Shown: positions 6,909 through 18,235, counted from the stretch's first letter. The stretch is DNA of 64,000 nt from a bacterium (GCA_043803945.1 JAZDJN010000010.1:1-64000), one strand, 5' to 3'. Notes: generated by a model not told the origin, from the sequence alone. Numbers and translations: made by a program.

Positions 6909-7415
6909 ATGGCAAAGGTCGTCTATAAACTTGGCGCTGATATCTCCACCGATATCATTTATCCCGGCCGGTATATGGCTACAGTGCTTCCGACGGAAAC
7001 TCCACAATTCGCATTTGTCGACATCAAAGAATTGAACGAGAAGCTGAAAGCTAAACAAATTCCGCCTGGCAGTGTAATCGTTGCCGGAAAGAATTTCGGC
7101 TGCGGATCTTCACGCGAGCAGGCAGTCTCTGCTCTGAAAGGGTATGAGCTGATTATTGTCGCTCCGAACTTCGCGCGGATCTTTTTACAGAACGGCATCA
7201 ACCTCGGGCTCCGGACAGTCTCGTGCCCCGGTATCGAAGCGAATGAAGGGGATGAACTTGACGTGACGGAGACTGAAGTAATCAATAAGACATCCGGTAA
7301 GACCTTCCACATCGAGCCGCTGCCGAAAGCCCGGCAGGCAATTGTGGAAGCCGGCGGATTGATTGCTTACACACGGAAGCGAGTGATTGAAAAAGCTGGC
7401 AAAGCCGCTTCGTAG
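6909..7415 (+). CDS. 3-isopropylmalate dehydratase / homoaconitase small subunit
   Basis: DISTDIIYPGRY, AGKNFGCGSSREQA and FARIFLQNGINLGL motifs. Confidence 0.93.
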   Translation: MAKVVYKLGADISTDIIYPGRYMATVLPTETPQFAFVDIKELNEKLKAKQIPPGSVIVAGKNFGCGSSREQAVSALKGYELIIVAPNFARIFLQNGINLGLRTVSCPGIEANEGDELDVTETEVINKTSGKTFHIEPLPKARQAIVEAGGLIAYTRKRVIEKAGKAAS

Positions 7416-7437
7416 TCCATAACTTCATTAACTAAAC

Positions 7438-7475
7438 AACCCCTTCCCGGAGATTCGTGGAGGGGTTTGCTTATT
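7438..7475 (+). terminator. Probable intrinsic terminator after the organic-acid cluster
   Basis: AACCCCTTCC...GGAGGGGTT stem followed by T-rich bases. A second hairpin (ATCCCGAC/GTCAGGAT, 7495-7519) lies between the convergent genes. Confidence 0.5.
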
Positions 7476-7536
7476 CGTGGTTGAGAATAAACAGATCCCG
7501 ACTTAAGAAATGTCAGGATGACTGCATAAGACGCAG

Positions 7537-7850
7537 TCATTTCACTAGCATCATTGCTTTGCGGGCGATTTGTTTAGTACCGGAGTTCTCGGTTGTTGTG
7601 AGCACATAGATGTACGCCCCACTGGCATAGCGCGAGGCATCGAACGTCTCCTTGAAATACCCTGCCGCCTTCTCCGCATCCACCAGCGTTGTTACCTGCT
7701 GACCAAGCATGTTGAAGATTCTCAGATTGATGTGTGCTTCTTTCGGCAACTGATACGCAATGGTCGTTGACGGGTTGAACGGATTCGGATAGTTCTGGAA
7801 CAGCTCAAACGTCTCCGGCGGCGAGACCTTTATCGCAATCTCCTTCTCCC
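7537..7850 (-). repeat. Copy 1 of a ~310-bp near-identical T9SS-CTD coding segment (copy 2 at 12607-12920)
   Basis: Long identical runs such as TCTCCGCATCCACCAGCGTTGTTACCTGCTGACCAAGCATGTTGAAGATTCTCAGATTGATGTGTGCTTCTTTCG occur in both copies. Confidence 0.95.
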
Positions 7851-8172
7851 ATCGGTTGCCATCTTTCGAGGTGATGACAAACTTCAGCTTTGTGTCGCTC
7901 CCCACCGGCGCTGAGTTGTCCAGAGAGAAACTGAACGTGACGGGCAGCTCCTGCTTTCCTTTTAGCAGCGCTAAAACTTGTTTCTGTTGTGTATAGCTTA
8001 CCCAGGCTGGCACATCGACCACCTCGATCGATATCGCTGTGAGTGCTTCGGAAGAGGAGTTGCTGATTGTTAACTCGATAGTATTCCCTTTCGAGGCAAA
8101 GGGGATGGTATAGATCTGCTGTGCGGTGGTGACGGTTGCCAGCAGAAGCAAGAGCAAAAGTGTTTTAGGCAT
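7537..8172 (-). CDS. Small secreted protein: one Ig-like domain plus T9SS type A C-terminal sorting domain (cassette A, gene 3)
   Basis: Signal peptide MPKTLLLLLLLATVTTA|Q with AGGAG upstream; C-terminus FELFQNYPNPFNPSTTI...SGAYIYVL...KAMMLVK. Confidence 0.88.
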   Translation of the reverse strand: MPKTLLLLLLLATVTTAQQIYTIPFASKGNTIELTISNSSSEALTAISIEVVDVPAWVSYTQQKQVLALLKGKQELPVTFSFSLDNSAPVGSDTKLKFVITSKDGNRWEKEIAIKVSPPETFELFQNYPNPFNPSTTIAYQLPKEAHINLRIFNMLGQQVTTLVDAEKAAGYFKETFDASRYASGAYIYVLTTTENSGTKQIARKAMMLVK

Positions 8173-8214
8173 GTCGTTTTCTCCCTTGACTATCATCATT
8201 CTCTGAGCTGAGTT

Positions 8215-9546
8215 CTACTTCACCTTGTTTGCAGAGGGTAGTTGTCGTAGTACATAGTCTATAACGGGTATCAAAATGTCATATCCCTCTTTTGTGAGAA
8301 AGCGTTTCGGATTGGCGGGGGTCTTCTTATACTCTGTCAGCAGTTTCTCTTTCACCTGTGTCAGTTCTTTGGCACAATTCACCGAGTCGTTCCGGACGAG
8401 GTGTTTTTTTGCATTCTCCAATCCGTTATCCAGTTCATTCACAAAGTTCTTGTCACCCAGCGGGCCATTGGCAGCGCAGCGATGTTTGGCGGCGATGAGG
8501 GTATCTAGCAGAACGCTTACCTTAAGTTGAAGTATCGGGAAGGTGAGAATATTGGATGTATCGCTGCCGGTGACAACGGCAACTTGAGCCGTTCCTGCAA
8601 CAGCAACATCAGCGGCAAGGATGGTGGCCTGCAAGACACTATCGGAAATGCATATTGTTGTCCGTGCCGATTGGTTCCATATGATCGTGGAGCGACTCGA
8701 AAAGTTCTTTCCATTGACAGTAAGAGTAAACGCTCCATTGTTCGAAAGCCAATATAAAGGATTCAAAGAATTGATGCTTGGCACCATATCTTTCGGTAGC
8801 TCGATAATAAGCTGTTCGACATCTTTCTTCAACAACTCAAAAGCCTTCCCGGAGATGTTTGTGACACTGTCGCTCCGGAGTTCAGTAAGAGCACTGGTCA
8901 GGCTTGATCGTGCAGCGATGTAATCTTGAGATTGGATTTGTTGACCTAAGTCCGTGAAGAGATTGATATATTTATCAGCGATGGACTGAGTATATATCCA
9001 ATTCATTTTTCGCATAACGGCAACATCCTGGATGAGACTTCTTGCCGAGACGAGTTTCCTAAAACTATTTGGTGCATTCGGATCGCTGTGGAAAATAAAT
9101 TCGAAGGTGATAGTGCTGTCTTTTTCTATCGGAATTGTATTTAGCTCGTAATCTATAGCTCTCTCTGAGAAATCGGTGTATACACCGATGCAAAGATGAA
9201 AAGTATCTCTCTTAGCACCATATAAATGAATCAAGAACTTTCCTTCATTCTCAAGTGAATAGAAGTAGTATGCAAACTCCATCCAATAATCTGGCTCAAC
9301 GGCTGGATCTACACTTCCATAACTTTGAAAAGAAGCATATGAGGCATTAGGAATCTCGTCATAACGTTTCCATTTGGTTGAATCGGGCTCGCCTCGCGGG
9401 TCTGCTCCACACCTGTTTCCAATAGAATCAGTAAATACAAAACTAACTGACGTAGAGGTGGTGGCACCCATAAGTACTTGATTCTGAGCTGTTGCACAAG
9501 ATAAGAGAATAGTAATTTGAACAAACAGCAGGATGATGTTTCGCAT
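8215..9546 (-). CDS. Secreted protein with IPT/TIG-like domain and FIMAH-like helical modules (cassette A, gene 2; putative partner/immunity)
   Basis: Signal peptide; PSINSLNP...FTLTVNGKNF IPT-like segment; C-terminus LDTLIAAKH...LENAKKHL...LTKEGYDIL aligns with the C-terminus of 13424..14797. Confidence 0.7.
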   Translation of the reverse strand: MRNIILLFVQITILLSCATAQNQVLMGATTSTSVSFVFTDSIGNRCGADPRGEPDSTKWKRYDEIPNASYASFQSYGSVDPAVEPDYWMEFAYYFYSLENEGKFLIHLYGAKRDTFHLCIGVYTDFSERAIDYELNTIPIEKDSTITFEFIFHSDPNAPNSFRKLVSARSLIQDVAVMRKMNWIYTQSIADKYINLFTDLGQQIQSQDYIAARSSLTSALTELRSDSVTNISGKAFELLKKDVEQLIIELPKDMVPSINSLNPLYWLSNNGAFTLTVNGKNFSSRSTIIWNQSARTTICISDSVLQATILAADVAVAGTAQVAVVTGSDTSNILTFPILQLKVSVLLDTLIAAKHRCAANGPLGDKNFVNELDNGLENAKKHLVRNDSVNCAKELTQVKEKLLTEYKKTPANPKRFLTKEGYDILIPVIDYVLRQLPSANKVK

Positions 9547-9563
9547 TGTTCACCTCTATTTTT

Positions 9564-12410
9564 TCAATTTCCTTTTGTAATAATTTGTACATAAGAATAA
9601 AATATATTTCGATACTGACTTAATGTGCTACTTTCTGTATATGAAGGATCTATAATTCTATATTCTCCGCTTGTGGTTTTTGAAGTTACGATAACCCAAT
9701 GGCTACGATCGGATTTTTCATTCCATACTGATACTATGACTGGCCCTTTTATCAATGCTTGGTCTAATTTTGAGTGTGACGTAGATGGCGTATTTTTTGT
9801 ATAGCCATCTAATGTATTCGGTACAATCACGATGCCCCTACTTGATTTTCTAAAATAATCTTTCATACGCCACCAAAGAAGAGCAGCATAATCAAAACAT
9901 TTATTTTCAGGAGCTTTAAAAATGATATTCAATTCTCTGGGATTTGTGTTAAATCCAAGTGCATTCAACACCATTGCCACACAAGTCAATGCACACCCTT
10001 TAGAACCAATAGTAGTGCCCTTGGAATATCCTAGCGTATCAATATTCCAAGATGTGTCTGTTTGTCGAAAATATTTTGCCAGGCTATTCGGATTGTTCAC
10101 TAGAACGGCTCCTTGCGCTAAAATGTTTTCCCCTCCTGAAACCATTACGCCTATACCCACAGGCCATAGCGGAGGGACAGTTCCATCGGCAACAAATTTT
10201 ATTTTTCCCGCACTAATATTTTGAAATGGAACGCCCGAGAATGTCTTTCCACTTCCTCCATCACCGTTGGTCAGGTTTCCATATTCCTGGTCGTCGGGTA
10301 ATATTCCAATGGCGAATGTTTCAATTTTACTGGGTGTTATAGTTTTCTTCTTTTGATATGCAGAAACACTAAGTGTGGAGGATTCACTCGTTTGTATTTC
10401 TTGAGGATTCCAACGAACAGATAAAGAATCAAATTTATTGTTTTGTATCACCACACTGCCGCTCGGCACGGGGCAGTCATTCATCAGCAGACGCTGCTGG
10501 ATAGCTTGGGCAAGGCGCATGGCACGCGAGCTGCTTTGTGCTGCTTGCTTCGATAAGCCTTTTCCTCCTGTCTGATGTTTCACGGCTATCCCTGCTTCAC
10601 CGCCTCCCGCTATCGCCTCAACCACAATCCCTACGCTTATCGAATCCACACTGAGTGTGTCGGCGGCTATAAAATATACCGGTTGTGTGACAGAGTACAA
10701 CTCCGTCCCCTCTGTCATCCCTGCCATACCATTTCCCCGTAGCTTGCCATACTCGCTATTCGTTATCAGCCATACATTGAACAGTTGATCGGCTGCATAT
10801 TCCTCTAACGTCCCGCCATCCTTTAGTTTTTTGAACGATAACCTCGTTGTATCACCGGGGGAGAGTCTGGATCGCTCAAAATCTATTCGAGCACATTCCA
10901 CCTTCTTTATTACTGTTACCCTCGCAATCCCATACTCAATTTCTTGCTCCCCTGAACCGTCACCCTTCACTACCGCAATGTAAATACACACTTCGACACT
11001 ATCGGGCATCGGTATCTCTTCCTCTGCCTGAAACCAGACCTGTGGTGAAAAACCCGTGATCCTATCTCCCGTTGAAGAACCATCCATTGCAGTCAAATGA
11101 CCGGCGTCATAATTTTTCGCTATAGCAAACATAATCATGCAATCTTGCGGAACTGGAACAATTTCACCTCCCGGTAACCTTTGCTTCACATCAAGAAGTG
11201 ATCGCTCACCGAATGTTATCTTGCCTGGATCCACGGTGATTGCCAAAGTATTGGGGACGATAGAGACGCTCATCGTGTCTGGAAGGATTTCTGCACTCGA
11301 TGAGCTGACACAGATCGTGACCTCTTCCCCGCCTCCCATTGGCTCCCTGCCCGTTGCTTCTAATAGAACTCTTGCACTTCCCTCGATCGATGGCTCAATA
11401 TTTTCAAGTACGTTTCCCCCTCCCTGGTGTGTGGCAGAGTATAACCCCACCAGGTCGCCGCCCTGAATCACCTCAAATCTATACTTCTCACCCGGTGGCA
11501 GTGCAACAGGATCACCGTCAAGATACGCTTGAGCCATGATCTGTTCGCTCTCTCCATGCACTATCAACATTGGTTCCATGGTGAGTTTGAGTTTAGGCTT
11601 TGGAAACACCGGCGGTACAATTTGAAATTGATTTATCGCAACCAGACTGTTAATCTCAGCAGAAACAACAACCGTAGCACTCGAACCGGCGCCTATACTA
11701 TCCACCGCAATAAATTTTACTCCACTGATATCACCCAATAATTTCGATACTGTATAGCCAAGAGGAGATCCGGTATCGGAATAGAATTGTCCGTACTCTC
11801 GTCCATCGATAATCGTCAACGTGACGGGGTCATGTGCCACATCGAATGGAATACCCGAACATCCCACGGCAGGATATACCGAAAAGGAATTTTCTCCCGA
11901 AGGTGAAATAGTCGTCCTTCCAATATCCAGCCCGACCCGATAGATAGACGGCAATGTATATCCATCCAGTCGCACGATCGACATAGGAGGACTACCCCAA
12001 CCATAGTATGGAGGAATAGTAACCGTTGTATCATGGTCGGAACTGCCCGGAGCAATTACTTTGACATTGACAACCGCCGAGGTTGGCCAGCCGTAGTGGA
12101 AAATACGTAACTCATAATCTCCGTTAGAGGTGTATGACACCTCATAAACACGATACGTATCTCCAGATCCAACTTCTGTATATGCTCCGCTACAATCGCA
12201 AAATGCCCAAAAGCCTATAGGTGTGCCAGCCGAGAATTCCAAACGCACAGTGAGAACGTTGGTAGTCGTGGTGGTCATGATAGCCGCGGCTGCCTGAGGC
12301 TTCGGGCTCAGGATAACCTTTTCGCGAATCTTCACCTGGGTAGTAAGCTGGGATAGGAACGTTAAAATGGAAAGCGTTACTAGAAAGAGAATCAAGTAGA
12401 TGTTCTTCAT
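9564..12410 (-). CDS. Large secreted multi-module protein with C-terminal C39-like (papain-fold) peptidase (cassette A, gene 1)
   Basis: Signal peptide; about five repeated beta-rich modules; tip YFRQTD..W...IGSKGCALTCVAMVL...SHWVIVT...IIDP (Gln/Cys/His/Asp pattern of Peptidase_C39-like domains). Confidence 0.8.
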   Translation of the reverse strand: MKNIYLILFLVTLSILTFLSQLTTQVKIREKVILSPKPQAAAAIMTTTTTNVLTVRLEFSAGTPIGFWAFCDCSGAYTEVGSGDTYRVYEVSYTSNGDYELRIFHYGWPTSAVVNVKVIAPGSSDHDTTVTIPPYYGWGSPPMSIVRLDGYTLPSIYRVGLDIGRTTISPSGENSFSVYPAVGCSGIPFDVAHDPVTLTIIDGREYGQFYSDTGSPLGYTVSKLLGDISGVKFIAVDSIGAGSSATVVVSAEINSLVAINQFQIVPPVFPKPKLKLTMEPMLIVHGESEQIMAQAYLDGDPVALPPGEKYRFEVIQGGDLVGLYSATHQGGGNVLENIEPSIEGSARVLLEATGREPMGGGEEVTICVSSSSAEILPDTMSVSIVPNTLAITVDPGKITFGERSLLDVKQRLPGGEIVPVPQDCMIMFAIAKNYDAGHLTAMDGSSTGDRITGFSPQVWFQAEEEIPMPDSVEVCIYIAVVKGDGSGEQEIEYGIARVTVIKKVECARIDFERSRLSPGDTTRLSFKKLKDGGTLEEYAADQLFNVWLITNSEYGKLRGNGMAGMTEGTELYSVTQPVYFIAADTLSVDSISVGIVVEAIAGGGEAGIAVKHQTGGKGLSKQAAQSSSRAMRLAQAIQQRLLMNDCPVPSGSVVIQNNKFDSLSVRWNPQEIQTSESSTLSVSAYQKKKTITPSKIETFAIGILPDDQEYGNLTNGDGGSGKTFSGVPFQNISAGKIKFVADGTVPPLWPVGIGVMVSGGENILAQGAVLVNNPNSLAKYFRQTDTSWNIDTLGYSKGTTIGSKGCALTCVAMVLNALGFNTNPRELNIIFKAPENKCFDYAALLWWRMKDYFRKSSRGIVIVPNTLDGYTKNTPSTSHSKLDQALIKGPVIVSVWNEKSDRSHWVIVTSKTTSGEYRIIDPSYTESSTLSQYRNIFYSYVQIITKGN

Positions 12411-12498
12411 GCGAGACCTCCCGAAGGTCTACGGTGATGAGTGGATGGGTTAAACGTTACGGTGCAAGTATACCTTTTTTTTTTACGATAAACGCAAG
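12403..12498 (-). promoter_or_regulatory. Cassette A leader: TTGCGT-19 bp (A10 tract)-TATACT promoter and hairpin covering the SD; duplicated at 17278-17373
   Basis: -35 at 12492-12497, -10 at 12467-12472, T10 at 12475-12484; AGACCT-TCGGG-AGGTCT hairpin (12414-12430) contains GGAGGT just before the ATG. Confidence 0.7.
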
Positions 12499-12606
12499 AG
12501 ATGGAATAATTAATTTTCGATTGCAGGTAAAACGAAATCGATCCCGGCTTTCGCTGAGACCATCTACCATTTTCCCCTCCACAAATTCACACAATAAAAA
12601 ATTCAG

Positions 12607-13410
12607 TCATTTCACCAGCATCATCGCCTTGCGGGCAATTTGTTTGGAGCCGGAGTTCTCAGTTGTTGTGAGAACATACACATACGCCCCGCTTGCATAG
12701 TGCGAAGCATCGAACGTCTCCTTGAAATATCCCGCCAGCCTCTCCGCATCCACCAGCGTTGTTACCTGCTGACCAAGCATGTTGAAGATTCTCAGATTGA
12801 TGTGTGCTTCTTTCGACAACTGATACGCAATGGTCGTTGACGGGTTGAACGGATTCGGATAGTTCTGGAACAACTCAAATGTCTCCGGCGGCGAGACTTT
12901 AATTGCAATCTCTTTCTCCCATTGACTCCCTTCGTTTGTTGTGATGGTGAATTTCAGTTTCGTTTCACTCGCTACCGCTGCCGACTTATCGACAGCGAAT
13001 ATTACTGAAACCGATAATTCTTGATGCGGTTTGAGCAAAGCAAGTGTTTGAGATATCGAAGAGCATTTCACCCATTCCGGGTGTTCCGTCATTCGTACTT
13101 CGATGTTTGACATTGCATCCCTGGTTTCATTGACAACCGTTAACTCTATGGTGTTGTCCGATGATCCAAATGGAACCGTATGGACGACAGCTTTTACATT
13201 TTCTGCTGGTTTGGTATTACCTTCAGACAGTTTTTCAGTTCCTTCCCGGGTCATCTCGATTTCAGTTCTCGGGCATCGTCTCTGCTGTTGCCATTGATCA
13301 AAGAATTCTTTCGTTAATATTCGTTTGGGAGCGGAGCCGCCTTGAACGACAGGCTGCTGGCTGTAAGCAAATTGCATTATGAGGAACAATCCGATGATAA
13401 AATTTCGCAT
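12607..13410 (-). CDS. Small secreted protein: Ig-like domain plus T9SS type A sorting domain (cassette B, gene 3)
   Basis: Signal peptide AYS|QQ; paralog of 7537..8172 (PF.S..NTIELT..N; WEKEIAIKVSPPETFELFQNYPNPFNP). Confidence 0.88.
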   Translation of the reverse strand: MRNFIIGLFLIMQFAYSQQPVVQGGSAPKRILTKEFFDQWQQQRRCPRTEIEMTREGTEKLSEGNTKPAENVKAVVHTVPFGSSDNTIELTVVNETRDAMSNIEVRMTEHPEWVKCSSISQTLALLKPHQELSVSVIFAVDKSAAVASETKLKFTITTNEGSQWEKEIAIKVSPPETFELFQNYPNPFNPSTTIAYQLSKEAHINLRIFNMLGQQVTTLVDAERLAGYFKETFDASHYASGAYVYVLTTTENSGSKQIARKAMMLVK

Positions 13411-13423
13411 ACGATATTCCTCC

Positions 13424-14797
13424 CTACAGTTTTGAGATAAGATACTCGGCGTTGTATTTCAACAGGGCGTATGCTTCAGAGGTGATCTGGTTTTCTTGTT
13501 TGTTCAGAGCTTCGACCTCATTCACAAATGCTTCGAGAATATTTCTTGCTGTCTTTGTATTCCCCTTCTGTAGTTGTTGTCTGGCATTCTCGAGTTTTTG
13601 ATCGAGGCTTGTCGTGATTCCCTTGTTTAGAATCCAATCAAGCTCAATAGCCTGGTGTTTATAAGTAATGAGAGTATCAATCCAGTTAATCGGTATAAAT
13701 TGACTAGATGGATCTACGGGGCCGATAGTTTTCCCCTTCACAGAATTATCATAAATATCTTTTGTACTAATTGGACCATTGTTACCTTGTACAAAGAATA
13801 ATTGAATACCTGGTAAGGCATTTGTTGTGAATGAAAAACTAGAGTCAACATCTGATTGTGCCATCAGGTTTTCCCCATCCAGATCTTCCCAAATCAACAA
13901 TGGCTTCTTCTCCGATAAAATAAATTCCCACTTATCCCTCCCTGTCACATTGAATATATTATTCGTTCCTCTTACGAGCACAAAATTCTCAATTCTCTGT
14001 ATACTCTCGGAAGAGTTAATTAGTCTATAGGAAAATTGAAAAGAATCTTCATACTTCGACACTTTTGATCTGATTGTAACAATTACTTTGTTTTTTGGCA
14101 GTGCGGTAATTTGCGGTGGTACACATCTAGAATACAATTGACCATTCCAACAATATGTAACTGCTACCGTGCTGTCCGAATATAAATTTTCTTGCAACCG
14201 TCCTTGTATTTCTTTTATACCGTCTCCATCCTTGTCGACTATTTCTAAATCGTCGCTAAATGATGCTATCTCTGAATGCCCTTCTGAGTCAAAGGAATTG
14301 AGCAGTTGTCCTACCTGGCCATCCCATCCAGCAATCCAAATATATCTATTTCCCCCTCGTATCCCTTCTTCCCAATAGCAGACAAGCTCTACCTTACCAT
14401 CTCGATTGATATCTGAAACAGTAACATAACCTGCTGTTGCAACATCGAAGCTGTTGATCAATGTATCAAGATGCCAAATGATTTGATTATCCTTAAAGAT
14501 TCCAAAAAATCCCCGTGGATAGCCATCATTCTCCTGAGGTTTCGCCTCTGCTGTAAAAAGATAACAATGATTCAAAGTTCCAAAGGGATTTTCAATAGAG
14601 TATTGAGAGACCCGGTTTCTTCCAATTGCACTATCTACGTTAATCAGATCTGTCACTCTATATTTTTCATCGCCATAAATTGAATTAATGGCTCTGTTTA
14701 TTCTCTCATAATCATTTTGTAACACACCTGGATTCATTTGTGCAATCGCAAGCACAGGGAAAATAATGAGAAAAAGCATAGTTGTTGATTTATTCAT
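13424..14797 (-). CDS. Secreted protein with Ca-binding-like loops and FIMAH-like C-terminal helical module (cassette B, gene 2; putative partner/immunity)
   Basis: Signal peptide AIA|Q; DINRDGKVE and DKDGDGIKE loops; C-terminus IDTLITYKH...SLDQKLENARQQL...LEAFVNEVEA...ITSEAYALL. Confidence 0.7.
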   Translation of the reverse strand: MNKSTTMLFLIIFPVLAIAQMNPGVLQNDYERINRAINSIYGDEKYRVTDLINVDSAIGRNRVSQYSIENPFGTLNHCYLFTAEAKPQENDGYPRGFFGIFKDNQIIWHLDTLINSFDVATAGYVTVSDINRDGKVELVCYWEEGIRGGNRYIWIAGWDGQVGQLLNSFDSEGHSEIASFSDDLEIVDKDGDGIKEIQGRLQENLYSDSTVAVTYCWNGQLYSRCVPPQITALPKNKVIVTIRSKVSKYEDSFQFSYRLINSSESIQRIENFVLVRGTNNIFNVTGRDKWEFILSEKKPLLIWEDLDGENLMAQSDVDSSFSFTTNALPGIQLFFVQGNNGPISTKDIYDNSVKGKTIGPVDPSSQFIPINWIDTLITYKHQAIELDWILNKGITTSLDQKLENARQQLQKGNTKTARNILEAFVNEVEALNKQENQITSEAYALLKYNAEYLISKL

Positions 14798-14807
14798 AAG
14801 AACCTCA

Positions 14808-17285
14808 TTATTGGTTTTGTGGTAGATAATGTAACACTTTTCTCATTACTCCATTTCGATACCACTCATTTGGATTCCATTTATAATAAACGATAAATCT
14901 AAAGCTTGTTTCAAAACCTGCAGGCCAATCACCGGTTTCTTCAAGAGCGTAGCCTAAATATCTTTCCAATAGGGACTTCTGATATTTTAATGAAAGCTCC
15001 ATAATTGCAGTCGTAACATTTAGCTCTTCAGGGAGATGTTGTCGATCACTTGGATACCTGCGTGCCAAAGCTGTAGTATAGAGCATCTGAAGCAATCCAT
15101 ATGAACTAGCTATGCGCGTTTGAGCTTTGACATTTTTCAAGCCACCCTTCCATTTATCCCGTAGAAACACAACAATTCTTTCATTCGCTTTAGAAATGGC
15201 TATAGATGAATTATACGTTTCGAGGAACTCATTGAGATACTCTCTATATTTATTTGTCAAAGTACTATAAGGAGAAAAGTTCATAGAGCCATCGGTATTA
15301 CGTATTCCATATAATCGGTGAGATTCATCGTTAATATCATTCACTAATTGTGAATGATCGTAGACCATATCCCAGACTGTTTTATTTGGATATGGATACT
15401 CTATCGTACGAACATTTTGATGTTGTGGTATGGGAGGATCATTTACGGGGCTTTCTCTAACAAAAAACGGATTTGTCACCATAGCAATAACACCGGGCCA
15501 AAATTGAACAGTATATGGTTCATATCGATAAGATGGATTGAATCGGTTACCGTGATGATCTGCTTCCTGCTCCATCTGTCCCTTTATAAAGTGCGGTGGT
15601 ACACCATATTTTCCACCATACGAAATACAAATTGAATCGATGTCTATCTCATTATTGAATACATCTCTTGACAATTGATATGTTGGATTTTGCCCTGGCG
15701 TGAGTAACCTGGTTGGCTTCGTGACCTTAATTGATATGCTCGTTGTCAAGTTTTGATAAATTGCTGTCAGCTTCACCCTGAAAGTTTTATCTTTCTCCCA
15801 ATATCGTCCAACAAGCCTTATCAAGCCATTAGGCAAGCCTGCTCCCTCTGGCTTTTTTTTCTCCCAATACACCCCGAGTTTTTCATCTCCTTCTACTTTC
15901 TGTACGGCACTGTTACTCCACACTCCTTCAGATGAAATGCCTTCGGCAGGTAAAATAGGATTAGATGTCTCTTCTATCTCTAACTTATCACCTCTTAATA
16001 CTGTATAGTAATACTTCGTCTCACCAAGAAGAATTTCATTCTCCTTGTTCCCCTTCACCAATACACCTCTTCCCGTTTTATTCCAATCCCAATCATCAAC
16101 GATTTGAACAATAATCCGTGCCGTGCTGTCAAGCGATCCGCCCCCGGATGCAACAACAAGCCTGAGCTCGTTCCTTACCTGCCGGAACGGCCTCCCCCAA
16201 AGATCTGTGCCATAACTATTCCCGAGCGTATCCTGAATCACAGCAATACCGCGACCTTCGATGATTCTGATATCCATCGGCTCTTCTGCATCCTCCGTAC
16301 CGCTCACAGGATCGATAAACATTCGAATCGTATCTCCATACGTAACCTCGTTCTTTTCGAACCGGACCGTATAGGCGGGCGGTGCAATCCAGGCATACAC
16401 CGCTGCGTCCAGAAAATCGGCGTCAATCCAATCTTCATACTCTATATACCACATCAACCACCGTGAGTCCCACTCATAACGCGGATAGGTCTGCTGCCCA
16501 AGAAGGCTGGGTGCACCGGATATCATGGGCAGCCGAAATGTGTCTCCTGGTACGATTTCCCCCAGGTTCACCGGGAAGTTCTGCAGCGCTGCATCCATGA
16601 GCAGCGAGTCATTCTTCGAGCGAAACAACAGTCTATCGCCACTGTAGCTATTGGGAAGATATCGGGCAACGAGTGCTCCACTGAGCGGCGCAACAAAGGG
16701 GCGTTCCTGTTTCGGTGGGCCAGCATCCGAGCGGAGATCCACTGCTGTGCTTATATCGGAGTAAAGCCGAAGCGAGAAGCTGAACTTGTTGGATGATTCT
16801 CTAAACCGTACACTATAATACCCCCATTCCGATTTCAGACCGAGTGTGCCGTAAGTACCCGACGCTTCCGATTCACTGTTGATATAGTTTCCATTTTCAC
16901 TTAAGAACTCGACGCTCAAGGAAAGATTGTCGCCCGGCAGAAATGAGCCTGCTTCATGTTCTTTACCAAAGAAGCCCCCTTCCAGTACATTACCCTGGAA
17001 GACTACATTGCCGATCGGGAGTGCAGTAATTCTTATGTTCGGCGTCAAACAAGACCAGCTATAAAATGTGGGACGCAGCGTAACACGACCTCCCATCGTA
17101 AAACGAAAGTATGTATATCCGGTCGAAGGCGGGATATCCCAGGTACTGGTGATTGTAGATGGTGTGAGAGATTGTGAGGATTGTGTGTTCGACTGAATCG
17201 AGATCTTTTCTTTGATTGTTACCTGAGCGTAAAGACAACACGCAAAGAGAATGATCATGGAACCGAGAATCGGCAGCTTCTTCAT
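14808..17285 (-). CDS. Large secreted protein with C-terminal lysozyme / lytic-transglycosylase-like domain (cassette B, gene 1)
   Basis: Signal peptide LYA|QVTIKEKI (compare LTT|QVKIREKV in cassette A); tip KYGVPPHFIKGQMEQEA...YRYEP...ASSYGLLQML resembles SLT motifs I and II with a large insert. Confidence 0.65.
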   Translation of the reverse strand: MKKLPILGSMIILFACCLYAQVTIKEKISIQSNTQSSQSLTPSTITSTWDIPPSTGYTYFRFTMGGRVTLRPTFYSWSCLTPNIRITALPIGNVVFQGNVLEGGFFGKEHEAGSFLPGDNLSLSVEFLSENGNYINSESEASGTYGTLGLKSEWGYYSVRFRESSNKFSFSLRLYSDISTAVDLRSDAGPPKQERPFVAPLSGALVARYLPNSYSGDRLLFRSKNDSLLMDAALQNFPVNLGEIVPGDTFRLPMISGAPSLLGQQTYPRYEWDSRWLMWYIEYEDWIDADFLDAAVYAWIAPPAYTVRFEKNEVTYGDTIRMFIDPVSGTEDAEEPMDIRIIEGRGIAVIQDTLGNSYGTDLWGRPFRQVRNELRLVVASGGGSLDSTARIIVQIVDDWDWNKTGRGVLVKGNKENEILLGETKYYYTVLRGDKLEIEETSNPILPAEGISSEGVWSNSAVQKVEGDEKLGVYWEKKKPEGAGLPNGLIRLVGRYWEKDKTFRVKLTAIYQNLTTSISIKVTKPTRLLTPGQNPTYQLSRDVFNNEIDIDSICISYGGKYGVPPHFIKGQMEQEADHHGNRFNPSYRYEPYTVQFWPGVIAMVTNPFFVRESPVNDPPIPQHQNVRTIEYPYPNKTVWDMVYDHSQLVNDINDESHRLYGIRNTDGSMNFSPYSTLTNKYREYLNEFLETYNSSIAISKANERIVVFLRDKWKGGLKNVKAQTRIASSYGLLQMLYTTALARRYPSDRQHLPEELNVTTAIMELSLKYQKSLLERYLGYALEETGDWPAGFETSFRFIVYYKWNPNEWYRNGVMRKVLHYLPQNQ

Positions 17286-17373
17286 GCGAGACCTCCCGAA
17301 GGTCTACGGTGATTGATGGATGGGTTTAAGCCTTACGGTGCAAGTATACCTTTTTTTTTACGATAAACGCAAG
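17278..17373 (-). promoter_or_regulatory. Cassette B leader: TTGCGT-18 bp (A9 tract)-TATACT promoter and the same SD hairpin
   Basis: -35 at 17367-17372, -10 at 17343-17348, T9 at 17351-17359, hairpin 17289-17305; near-identical to 12403-12498. Confidence 0.7.
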
Positions 17374-17535
17374 GGTTGGGAAGAGTAAATTTTAACTGCG
17401 ATTGAAATGAAATACACTCTTGATGTCTACAGGGACCGGTTTTATCCCATTTAGAGTTTTCCCACCCAACGATAGAATATCGCAAAAAGGGGTCTACTAT
17501 TTCCTGTCTTTCCGCTACCTCTTTTGATCGATTCC

Positions 17536-17567
17536 AAAAAAAAGTCCCGACTCTCGCCGGGACTTTT
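17536..17567 (-). terminator. Intrinsic terminator ending the ribosomal supercluster / engB transcript
   Basis: AAAAGTCCCG-loop-CGGGACTTTT stem with a U8 tail on the minus strand. Confidence 0.8.
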
Positions 17568-17605
17568 ACTCTCTAACGTCTCACTTCTTACATCTTACCT
17601 CACAT

Positions 17606-18235
17606 TCACACCGCTTCTTTTTTTTCCGTCCGGGGTTTAACGAGATGCGCCTCAATCAATTTGAGGAGATCATTCCGTCCTTCGCCGGTCATAATGGAGA
17701 ACGGGACGATGCCGTGGCAGCATCCATTGCAAATCTGGCTATTGAACCGTTCCTTGTATCCCTCCATCTGCTTCATCAGCTTGCTCTGCGGAAGCTTGTC
17801 GGCCTTGGTGAGGACCAGGAGGTAAGGAATTTCGTAGTACTCCAGCCAATCCATCATCATTAAATCGAGCGGAGTCGGCTCCTGCCGTGAATCGATGAGC
17901 TGCATCGCAAGGGCGATCGGCCCCCCCCGTTTGAGAAAATCCTCAATCAGCTTTTTCCATCCGGCACGCATCTGTTCAGGAACCTTGGCATAACCATAGC
18001 CCGGCAAATCAACAAAGTAAAACCCATTGTTGATGATATAGTAGTTGATCTCGCGTGTTTTTCCGGGAGTGGAACTGGAACGTGCAAGGCTCTTCCGGTT
18101 GCACACCTTGTTGAGCAATGAGGATTTGCCAACATTCGAGCGACCAATAAAGAGTACTTCACGGAGTTCGTTTTTGGGAAGCTGGCGTAAATCTGCTACG
18201 CCCTGCAGAAATTCAGCAGAATTTATTTTTAGCAT
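17606..18235 (-). CDS. engB: Ribosome biogenesis GTPase YihA/YsxC
   Basis: GRSNVGKSSL, PGKT, DLPGYGY and TKADK motifs. Confidence 0.96.
   Translation of the reverse strand: MLKINSAEFLQGVADLRQLPKNELREVLFIGRSNVGKSSLLNKVCNRKSLARSSSTPGKTREINYYIINNGFYFVDLPGYGYAKVPEQMRAGWKKLIEDFLKRGGPIALAMQLIDSRQEPTPLDLMMMDWLEYYEIPYLLVLTKADKLPQSKLMKQMEGYKERFNSQICNGCCHGIVPFSIMTGEGRNDLLKLIEAHLVKPRTEKKEAV

Follow-up and report, generated by a model that had tools for sequence, protein, structure and literature searches.

What is the function of a bacterial locus in which two tandem three-gene cassettes each bring together an enzyme-bearing protein, a partner protein and a small protein that ends in the C-terminal domain (CTD) of type IX secretion system (T9SS) cargo? 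This question is raised by the window analysed here, a stretch of 64,000 nucleotides (GCA_043803945.1 JAZDJN010000010.1:1-64000) in which six minus-strand open reading frames (ORFs) form cassette A (12410-7537) and cassette B (17285-12607). Our analysis indicates that these cassettes probably represent a new class of polymorphic exported hydrolase toxins with cognate periplasmic immunity, linked to a T9SS cargo made of an immunoglobulin-like (Ig) domain and a CTD. Several features by which polymorphic toxin-immunity systems are recognised were found: gene 1 is a carrier with alternative C-terminal enzymes (hereafter tips), the downstream gene 2 co-varies with them, and extra gene-2 copies and cassette arrays occur elsewhere. 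The genes and the repeat that ends both cassettes are as follows.

9564-12410, minus strand: A1, gene 1 of cassette A, 948 residues; predicted signal peptide, N-terminal tail, long beta-rich middle, C39-like peptidase tip
8215-9546, minus strand: A2, gene 2 of cassette A, 443 residues; predicted signal peptide, cassette-specific N-domain, FIMAH domain, TIG/CoaZ Ig domain, second FIMAH domain
7537-8199, minus strand: A3, gene 3 of cassette A, 220 residues; predicted signal peptide, Ig domain, type-A T9SS CTD
14808-17285, minus strand: B1, gene 1 of cassette B, 825 residues; predicted signal peptide, tail, beta-rich middle, Ig-like domain, putative SLT/lysozyme-like tip
13424-14797, minus strand: B2, gene 2 of cassette B, 457 residues; predicted signal peptide, FG-GAP/VCBS-like beta domain, Ig-like domain, FIMAH four-helix bundle
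12607-13410, minus strand: B3, gene 3 of cassette B, 267 residues; predicted signal peptide, ~50-residue insert, Ig domain, type-A T9SS CTD
7534-7833 and 12604-12903, no strand assigned: 300-nt direct repeat, CTD coding sequence and stop codon, 91% identical

An earlier note on this DNA had proposed these six ORFs and their order in two cassettes, and both were recovered at the same positions, all on the minus strand. It had also described conserved ends around unrelated middles, and this description holds. The 3' ends share the 300-nt repeat, and A3 and B3 are 72% identical across 192 residues, the next-best match to either among the ~150 CTD-bearing paralogues of the genome reaching 45-57% and covering the CTD only. 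Between the ends, A1 and B1 have no significant similarity (best BLASTP E-value 0.24), and the similarity of A2 and B2 is confined to their helical C-terminal part, the FIMAH domain (E = 6e-5), gene 2 being otherwise cassette-specific in its N-terminal region as the note had stated. A1, A2, B1 and B2 each occur as a single copy in the 5.54-Mb assembly. In all six proteins, a basic N-terminus precedes a hydrophobic core and a small-x-small site with Gln directly after it, features that agree with the signal peptides claimed for them; we read these N-termini as signal-peptidase-I signal peptides, and all six proteins look Sec-exported. Gln is the first residue of every predicted mature N-terminus. 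In Bacteroidetes, signal-peptidase-I substrates tend to start with Gln (the pyroglutamate 'Q-rule'), and the six mature N-termini fit this rule.

The tip of gene 1 differs between the two cassettes.

9645-10073, minus strand: C39-like papain-fold peptidase domain of A1, residues 780-922, PF13529
14811-15698, minus strand: candidate lysozyme-like or lytic-transglycosylase-like domain of B1, residues ~530-825, with invariant Glu574

The C39-like peptidase noticed earlier at the end of A1 is confirmed by a match of residues 780-922 to PF13529 (28.3 bits for a cut-off of 24, E = 2.9e-6), and its catalytic triad is established, since the Cys (GCA..AM), the His (H[WY]) and the Asp (DP) are invariant in 10/10 C39 tips. 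The profile of A1-type tips also matches PDB chains of the C39 toxins CdiA-CT, StbD and DUF4150, weakly (E from 0.0016 to 0.0075) and over only ~46 residues near the His and the Asp. The SLT- or lysozyme-like tip claimed for B1 stands by its modelled fold and not by Pfam or PDB-profile matches. No match to B1 was found in Pfam or NCBIfam, a profile of 14 tips from its relatives retrieved nothing significant from Pfam or PDB sequences, and the expected match to PF01464 (SLT/GH23) was not obtained, just one of these 14 tip homologues touching it (E 0.1). In an AlphaFold2 (AF2) model of residues 414-825 (pLDDT 78), a helical domain comes after an Ig-like one. The top ranks of VIA-align for the tip model are MltC (4c5f, Z 9.6, root-mean-square deviation (rmsd) 2.7, 123 residues aligned, 20% identity) and MltF (Z 9.6), followed by 5o2n (Z 9.0), MltE (Z 8.6), Slt70 (Z 7.7) and a g-type lysozyme; Tse3 (4luq_A), a type VI secretion system (T6SS) muramidase, aligns over 155 residues (Z 8.0, rmsd 5.1). 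Foldseek with the same model against the PDB gave Ig-domain matches alone, none at E <= 0.001. Since Z values of 7-8 are common in the VIA background, the evidence for an SLT fold is moderate. Further support comes from two features present in 14/14 aligned tips, an invariant Glu (B1 residue 574) with a small residue after it and a AQTRIASSYGLLQM block (SSYGLLQ-type), a combination that we take to be the SLT signature. The model thus gives moderate support to a lytic-transglycosylase- or lysozyme-like fold for the B1 tip.

Relatives of gene 1 carry other tips. MepA/M74-type metallopeptidases of the LAS group match PF03411 in L022 and L027 (E from 1.3e-5 to 1.4e-5) and more weakly in L023 and L028, and their H..HR.G...D block and terminal His are invariant in 17/17 tips. 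Another family has an invariant HExxH motif (7/7), with no relative found in Pfam or, by profile, anything significant in the PDB. At least two additional tip clusters are without any match, and no tip of the nuclease, deaminase or ADP-ribosyltransferase kind was recognised among those examined. Two further clusters that had looked like tips were actually second gene-2 copies. Hence, the variation of tips across homologues, a check set beforehand, was observed, with SLT-like, C39-like, M74-like, HExxH and other tips. Since related enzymes are established interbacterial toxins (Tse3 for the SLT-like tip and, with weak matches, CdiA-CT and StbD for the C39 tip), these folds support a toxin function. 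The proposal that both tip folds of the window attack peptidoglycan fared less uniformly: it holds for SLT-like tips, as it does for M74-like ones, and is conjectural for cassette A, as the established C39 toxins Cpe1 and StbD-CT cleave GyrB/ParE and not peptidoglycan.

Gene 2 changes with the tip. Pairing was examined in 86 unique complete cassettes, whose gene-2 N-domains were typed with hidden Markov models (HMMs); simple clustering of gene-2 N-termini had merged types through their common FIMAH and S2 parts and was replaced by this typing. SLT tips are followed by a full B2-type N-domain in 42 cassettes out of 42, C39 tips by an A2-type N-domain in 6/6 and the HExxH-type cluster by a single gene-2 cluster in 7/7. 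The M74 tips are associated with the short S2 type, which corresponds to the middle domain of B2, in 11 of 15 cassettes and with other types in four, none of them A2 or B2. Behind one conserved N-terminal tail, no fewer than four types of tip are found. Furthermore, L016 combines an A1-like N-terminal region with an SLT tip and L023 combines one with an M74 tip, and residues 195-510 of A1, its middle, match gene-1 proteins bearing other tips; as read from these sequences, carrier and tip are shuffled independently. The idea of a polymorphic effector with a cognate partner is thereby borne out as far as co-variation goes, tip type and gene-2 N-domain apparently being swapped together.

The extent of the exchanged region is best seen in G040, a near-complete genome that has at least seven SLT cassettes, including tandem ones, and in which 7 gene-1, 8 gene-2 and 8 gene-3 paralogues were compared. 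The first ~450 residues of gene 1 are 87-97% identical and the tips 18-55%, the first ~450 residues of gene 2 are 22-41% identical and the remainder 74-100%, and gene 3 is 91-98% identical. Therefore, one contiguous hypervariable block, consisting of the 3' end of gene 1 and the 5' part of gene 2, lies between conserved flanks, and modular swapping can be regarded as established. The window has the same layout in miniature, with a common leader and tail, unrelated middles, and a common FIMAH domain and gene 3. We propose that the conserved flanks (leader and 5' end of gene 1 on one side, 3' end of gene 2 and gene 3 on the other) would let recombination swap the tip/partner block. Among 40 SLT cassettes, distances between the tip and the gene-2 N-domain are correlated (r 0.77), more than those between the tip and the gene-3 Ig domain (r 0.29) or the tip and FIMAH (r 0.24), with r 0.56 for FIMAH versus the gene-3 Ig domain; since the genes lie side by side and the genomes, being related, are not independent samples, these values describe block structure and not proven protein co-evolution.

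Additional gene-2 copies were also found. L155 (G040:C1:1204100-1213600) has one gene 1, five tandem gene-2 paralogues and one gene 3; its gene 1 encodes 667 residues, has a variant tail and carries HExxH near the C-terminus, and the gene-2 paralogues encode 285-310 residues with N-domains that are 27-74% identical. By analogy, this arrangement resembles a poly-immunity array. Two full gene-2 copies lie in tandem behind one SLT gene in L058, L077 and L085. In L011, L033 and L068, an ORF of 232-241 residues that corresponds to only the first half of a B2-type N-domain lies between gene 1 and a full gene 2, either as a fragment left by duplication or as part of a split gene.

These data also bear on whether the cassettes are weapons or means of feeding. 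Their products could be lytic enzymes, displayed at the surface (with gene 3 as anchor) or released, that digest the walls of other bacteria, for instance monoderm ones, or material from dead cells; gene 2 would then be a dedicated inhibitor or chaperone that, like staphostatins and propeptides, renders the enzyme harmless while it crosses the periplasm, here in trans. Feeding or predation would suit tips that are all extracytoplasmic hydrolases, with none of the nuclease, deaminase or ADP-ribosyltransferase type, the long Ig/fn3-type spacers on genes 1 and 2, which are typical of surface enzymes, and a genome rich in T9SS cargo (157 ORFs with a CTD). It would also suit the lack of a recognisable outer-membrane import module, the large multi-domain gene 2 and the finding of no orphan gene 2 in the genome of the window. 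However, the presence in G040 of at least seven pairs of the same fold, with tips 18-55% identical on near-identical carriers, fits diversifying specificity better than a common substrate, and neither the five gene-2 paralogues behind one gene 1 in L155 nor the patchy distribution described below is readily explained by nutrition. We therefore regard feeding or predation as the main rival but a minor possibility, with a polymorphic toxin-immunity system as the preferred reading.

If the cassettes are toxin-immunity systems, gene 2 would provide the immunity. Its domains in cassette A are listed here.

9022-9486, minus strand: cassette-specific N-domain of A2, from the N-domain family alignment
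8797-9108, minus strand: first FIMAH domain of A2, from the cassette-derived FIMAH HMM
8533-8784, minus strand: TIG/CoaZ Ig domain of A2, residues 255-338, Pfam TIG and NF058597 (E 5e-21)
8218-8538, minus strand: second FIMAH domain of A2, from the cassette-derived FIMAH HMM

B2 matches FIMAH (PF22888) with 43.7 bits for a cut-off of 24.8; A2 stays under this cut-off (21.8 bits) and is matched by the FIMAH HMM derived from the cassettes, and this HMM matches 79 of the 86 gene-2 proteins. In the AF2 model of B2 (pLDDT 84), an N-terminal helix is followed by a beta-rich FG-GAP/VCBS-like domain (21-232), an Ig-like sandwich (235-361) and a four-helix bundle (365-457). The bundle, which is the FIMAH domain, has a GH92 enzyme as its top VIA match (7nsn_B, Z 14.3). 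The N-domain of B2 falls among VCBS/FG-GAP-like clusters in the ESM Atlas. One feature match (0.91, 152 shared features) concerns a cluster with 20% of members carrying PF16743 (PliI); this is a lead only, and Pfam gave no match to PliI on B2. Profiles of B2 and of the A2 N-domain retrieved nothing significant from the PDB. B2 has 237 relatives at E <= 1e-5, and among the 120 listed all are named 'hypothetical protein' bar one automatic label. NF058597 ('choice-of-anchor Z repeating domain') is also present in giant proteins (2800-3800 residues) of related genomes. Elsewhere in the genome of the window, a plus-strand ORF of ~1500 residues (G000:C87:141737-146263) weakly matches the HMM of the B2 N-domain (E 5.4e-8) and is probably a generic FG-GAP/VCBS repeat protein.

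The predicted signal peptide of A2 points to neutralisation outside the cytoplasm, and we consider it likely, from the pairing of tip and N-domain types, that the gene-2 N-domain binds and blocks the tip in the periplasm. Alternatively, gene 2 may serve structure or targeting within a cellulosome-like surface assembly, in which gene 3 would be the anchor, FIMAH would dock to it and the N-domain would position an unblocked tip. Such a subunit could explain why gene 2 often reaches 650-1300 residues with extra Ig, fn3 and HEAT modules, why the distances of FIMAH and the gene-3 Ig domain are correlated (r 0.56) and why FIMAH is found in a multi-domain glycosidase (the GH92 enzyme 7nsn_B). Tip-specific pairing, a hypervariable block and a gene-2 array are, however, more typical of immunity genes, and we judge a purely structural gene 2 improbable.

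The third gene and the N-terminal tail of gene 1 raise the question of how a toxin-immunity complex would leave the cell.

7819-8121, minus strand: Ig domain of A3
7540-7818, minus strand: CTD of A3 (TIGR04183, 40.7 bits for a cut-off of 23; PF18962, 42.5 bits for a cut-off of 27)
12889-13191, minus strand: Ig domain of B3
12610-12888, minus strand: CTD of B3 (TIGR04183, 36 bits for a cut-off of 23; PF18962, 38.4 bits for a cut-off of 27)
12303-12338, minus strand: tail of A1, motif match
17190-17225, minus strand: tail of B1 (QVTIKEKISIQS), followed by a Ser/Thr/Gln-rich linker

In gene 3, a ~100-residue Ig domain straight after the signal peptide is followed by a type-A CTD. No CTD match was found in A1, A2, B1 or B2 with Pfam and NCBIfam at E up to 0.1, nor with a CTD HMM of our own. 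The genome carries the SprA translocon gene, in addition to its 157 ORFs with a T9SS CTD. Since gene 3 is a CTD cargo while genes 1 and 2 are devoid of CTD, we infer that gene 3 might connect them with the T9SS or with the cell surface, a link that we hold as possible rather than probable. A more specific version is more doubtful still: gene 3 may act as a trans-acting T9SS signal that captures the gene-1 tail (e.g. by beta-strand addition) and/or FIMAH and carries the CTD-less toxin-immunity complex out by the T9SS to the cell surface.

The tail is a strand-like motif of ~12 residues at the mature N-terminus of gene 1 (Q-[VI]-x-I-[KR]-[ED]-x-[VIL]-x-I-x-P), followed by a low-complexity linker beyond which the sequences diverge. 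The resemblance already noticed between the mature N-termini of A1 and B1 extends to 52 distinct gene-1 proteins, in which Q1 is the one invariant position and I4 is nearly invariant. Among 18163 stop-to-stop ORFs of the genome, the motif is found in A1 and B1 only; therefore, its partner is more likely to be another part of the cassette than a general machine. Assessable non-decayed loci without gene 3 (L100 and L104) are also without tail, a very small sample of two, and the decayed locus L078, without gene 3, retains it. This comparison is only indicative since the strict regular expression misses many variant tails and mis-called starts (35/86). The ORFs of fetched loci were called by a simple ATG-first rule that mis-sets some starts and split genes, which affects the tail counts.

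Among 1.84 billion representative proteins, the gene-3 Ig domain has 284 matches at E <= 1e-10, and the best 150 of these 284 relatives are nearly all small single-Ig proteins. Long gene-2 ORFs of G040 had been considered as gene-2/gene-3 fusions; this was rejected, gene 3 being separate there and no fusion being found among the best 150 gene-3 relatives. B3 has a Gln/Glu/Arg-rich insert of ~50 residues (13192-13356, residues ~19-73) between its signal peptide and Ig domain that is found neither in A3 nor in most gene-3 proteins, and other N-terminal extensions occur in gene-3 proteins of 294-385 residues (L041, L146, L160). L169 and L173 have gene-3-like Ig and CTD genes without recognisable gene 1 or 2, next to M28 and C1 peptidase genes in L169 and with neighbours that include CTP synthase in L173; they look like orphan or re-used gene-3 copies.

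The mechanism that we propose can be summarised as follows. Each cassette would be one transcription unit, in Ignavibacteria-type bacteria that have a T9SS. Gene 1 would be a Sec-exported carrier, built from the tail with its flexible linker, Ig-like spacers that vary and a C-terminal hydrolase tip that can be exchanged, and would act as an exported toxin or lytic effector. Gene 2 would be its Sec-exported partner, whose tip-type-specific N-domain would most likely ensure immunity or self-protection in the periplasm, whereas the FIMAH bundle is one of the conserved portions of the cassette. The part of gene 3 would be to join this complex with the T9SS or the cell surface, possibly via the gene-1 tail or FIMAH.

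Is this organisation conserved beyond the window? Among 41 related genomes searched, matches to A1 were found in 14, to B1 in 5, to A2 in 19 and to B2 in 18. The order gene 1-gene 2-gene 3 recurs in 20 loci taken from 10 related genomes, at least one gene 3 being present in 14 of them; two of the six loci without gene 3 stop at a contig edge. A scan of public genomes with an alignment of the B1 tip gave 77 loci, in which rescanning with HMMs of the cassette parts identified 83 SLT-tip genes. A full B2-like gene lies at most 600 nt downstream of 73 of these 83 (contig end in 8, none in 2), and gene 3 is next after the B2-like gene in 49/83 (contig end in 26, none found in 8). Conversely, a FIMAH gene is directly upstream of gene 3 in 31 of 40 gene-3-anchored loci; the remaining ones include one A2-type N-domain without FIMAH match and three large gene pairs with a tail and no FIMAH match, and two of the 40 look like orphan gene 3. 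The three genes thus co-occur elsewhere, which was the other check set beforehand, and the architecture of the cassette and its conservation are established.

Nearly all of the 77 loci are labelled as Ignavibacteriota, Ignavibacteriales, Melioribacteraceae, Kapabacteria, Kryptoniota or unclassified 'Bacteroidota'. The few other labels are Calditrichaceae, Gracilimonas, Chitinophagaceae, Rhodocyclaceae and Chloroflexota, and four distant SLT loci belong to Thermoanaerobaculia/Acidobacteriota. Of 121 genomes of the order, 46 have the gene-3 Ig domain, with 1-11 copies; in a phylum-wide sample of 301 genomes, 25 have it, mostly from the class of the window itself. The distribution of the cassette is patchy and its copy number is variable.

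This distribution is relevant to a more ordinary role, in which the tips would be autolysins and gene 2 their regulator, with tasks in growth, in division or in inserting envelope machines. Murein metabolism ordinarily uses lytic transglycosylases and MepA-type endopeptidases, MltC, MltF and Slt70 come nearest in fold, and the cassettes of the window adjoin a ribosomal-protein/rpoA cluster. Such housekeeping remodelling of the cell wall is nevertheless very improbable for a cassette that was not found in 75 of the 121 genomes searched within the order, varies from 1 to 11 copies, has hypervariable tips and includes a dedicated T9SS-cargo gene. Moreover, the GC content of the cassette genes (0.38-0.45) is lower than that of their flanks (~0.50) and, for most of them, than the genome value of 0.465 (B2 0.379, A2 0.435, B1 0.442), which is compatible with horizontal acquisition. 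The cassettes are bordered by a leuC/leuD-like pair on one side and by engB and the ribosomal-protein/rpoA cluster on the other. A small-subunit gene beside the insertion site (6909-7415) is present in 1/5 relatives, in a different neighbourhood.

Several points weigh against a polymorphic toxin-immunity system. Gene 2 is large, often 650 to ~1300 residues elsewhere with fn3, Ig or HEAT additions, a size that is unusual for an immunity protein and suggests that it has a structural role too. No orphan gene 2 was found in the genome of the window. In the cassettes, no outer-membrane import module is recognisable, and a hydrolase released outside the cell cannot cross the outer membrane of a target unaided. 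Known C39 toxins are cytoplasmic with cytoplasmic immunity, whereas A2 has a predicted signal peptide. The Z values of the B1 tip (8.6-9.6) are only moderately over the background of 7-8. The pairing of tip and N-domain and the correlation of their distances may partly result from adjacency on the DNA and inheritance as one recombination block, and the related genomes in which they were assessed are not independent samples. Lastly, no gene 3 was found in the 2.5-3 kb downstream of four cassettes with C39 or M74 tips (L017, L024, L025, L028), and of 57 SLT cassettes that could be assessed, eight are without it; a cassette can therefore do without gene 3.

The two cassettes also share their 5' ends.

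17286-17373, minus strand: candidate promoter and 5' untranslated region (5'UTR) of cassette B, 93% identical to 12411-12500, with a -35/-10-like pair seen by eye and a hairpin with the ribosome-binding site (RBS)
12411-12500, minus strand: candidate promoter and 5'UTR of cassette A, a copy of the cassette B leader

The leaders 12403-12500 and 17278-17373 are 93% identical over 97 nt and end at the gene-1 ATG, and only these two copies exist in the genome. The near-identical leader of ~95 bp reported earlier is thus real; since it lies upstream of the gene-1 ATG, it is a candidate promoter and 5'UTR and does not encode a signal peptide. The -35/-10-like pair, read by eye, is a candidate promoter; a scan for consensus sigma-70 sites and terminators gave no more than expected from shuffled sequences (21 sites versus 20.3, and 6 versus 7.9, respectively). 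A perfect hairpin with a 6-bp stem (17 nt; within 12411-12440 and 17286-17315, minus strand) encloses a GGAGG RBS 7 nt before the start codons of A1 and B1, and the exact 17-mer is found nowhere else in the genome; it may be a translational control element. A CACCGTA-like heptamer occurs, often twice, between the promoter-like site and the gene-1 start (12440-12470, 17315-17345, L015, L016 and L017); CACCGTA is not enriched genome-wide (483 observed versus ~676 expected). An Rfam scan of 7000-18000 gave no match at E <= 1.

This is a compact, sharply delimited cassette with a wide distribution. In the prevailing view, T9SS cargo requires a C-terminal domain of its own, and the association of CTD-less enzymes with a CTD mini-protein makes this question directly testable. 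It also does so for the role of the T9SS in bacterial antagonism, which, according to the available part of the source, has so far only been hypothesised (PMC7073777). If gene 3 did act as a trans-acting T9SS signal, it would be the first such example, and the cassettes would constitute a recombination-swappable, T9SS-delivered antibacterial arsenal in Ignavibacteria. In addition, the study of enzyme-inhibitor specificity gains a set of hydrolases with their matching partners, among them diverged tips of the SLT-like, C39, LAS and HExxH types without family assignment, and the cassette accounts for many 'hypothetical proteins' of Ignavibacteriota.

How does the cassette compare with known systems? 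The earlier note did not recognise it as a named one, and we agree: literature on T9SS toxin/immunity, Ignavibacteria and T9SS piggyback export gave no description of it, and neither the three-gene cassette, the tail nor the FIMAH-bearing partner was found in the main texts of open-access papers and preprints. We consider it a new class among polymorphic toxin-immunity systems and a member of no named family. The closest published analogue that we found is the TANFOR polymorphic toxins of Bacteroidetes. In the part of the source available, these toxins have a signal peptide and no CTD of their own, CTD genes are enriched nearby, and export by the T9SS is hypothesised (PMC7073777). The likeness extends to a Sec signal, a conserved N-terminal part, an exchangeable C-terminal toxin, a downstream cognate immunity gene and a toxin devoid of CTD (PMC7073777, same part). 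However, A1 and B1 lack a TANFOR domain (no NCBIfam or TANFOR-type Pfam match at E up to 0.1), the conserved element here being the tail of ~12 residues. Furthermore, the tips are envelope hydrolases, whereas TANFOR toxins are, in the portion of that paper considered, mainly nucleases and similar enzymes (PMC7073777); the partner has a predicted signal peptide and FIMAH, and the CTD protein has a small gene to itself within an operon of three genes in fixed order. The T9SS is also counted among the delivery hallmarks of polymorphic toxins, at least in the accessible section of one publication (PMC12419801).

Other toxins share individual properties with the cassettes. The C39 toxins Cpe1, associated with T6SS or contact-dependent inhibition (CDI), and StbD-CT cleave cytoplasmic GyrB/ParE and have cytoplasmic immunity, according to the available parts of two reports (PMC12136450; bioRxiv 10.64898/2026.05.07.723447). 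Like A1, they use a C39/papain-like Cys-His-Asp peptidase as an exchangeable C-terminal toxin with an adjacent immunity gene (same parts of PMC12136450 and bioRxiv 10.64898/2026.05.07.723447); they differ in that they enter the cytoplasm, as far as these parts go, whereas A1 and A2 are both predicted to be Sec-exported. The T6SS pairs Tse3-Tsi3, Tse1-Tsi1 and Tae/Tge consist of muramidase or amidase effectors with adjacent-encoded periplasmic immunity, and the B1 tip aligns with Tse3. However, these effectors lack a Sec signal and reach their target by injection, the cassette contains no T6SS marker, and the carrier, FIMAH and gene 3 have no counterpart in them. The modular layout of gene 1 recalls colicin M-Cmi and pesticin-Pim, in which a short N-terminal strand (the TonB box) and a middle receptor part precede a C-terminal cell-wall enzyme, with periplasmic immunity; these bacteriocins differ by the lack of a signal peptide, by release through lysis and by the lack of a third, CTD-encoding gene.

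Two comparisons concern gene 3. In LXG toxins of the type VII secretion system, small Lap adaptors bind the conserved N-terminal part of the toxin and make it export-competent. By analogy, a separately encoded small adaptor is the role proposed for gene 3, although the secretion system and the folds are different. Gene 3 also resembles ordinary type-A CTD cargo, as it exceeds the TIGR04183 and PF18962 thresholds and SprA is encoded by the genome, but its CTD follows a ~100-residue Ig domain without enzyme, next to an enzyme gene without CTD.

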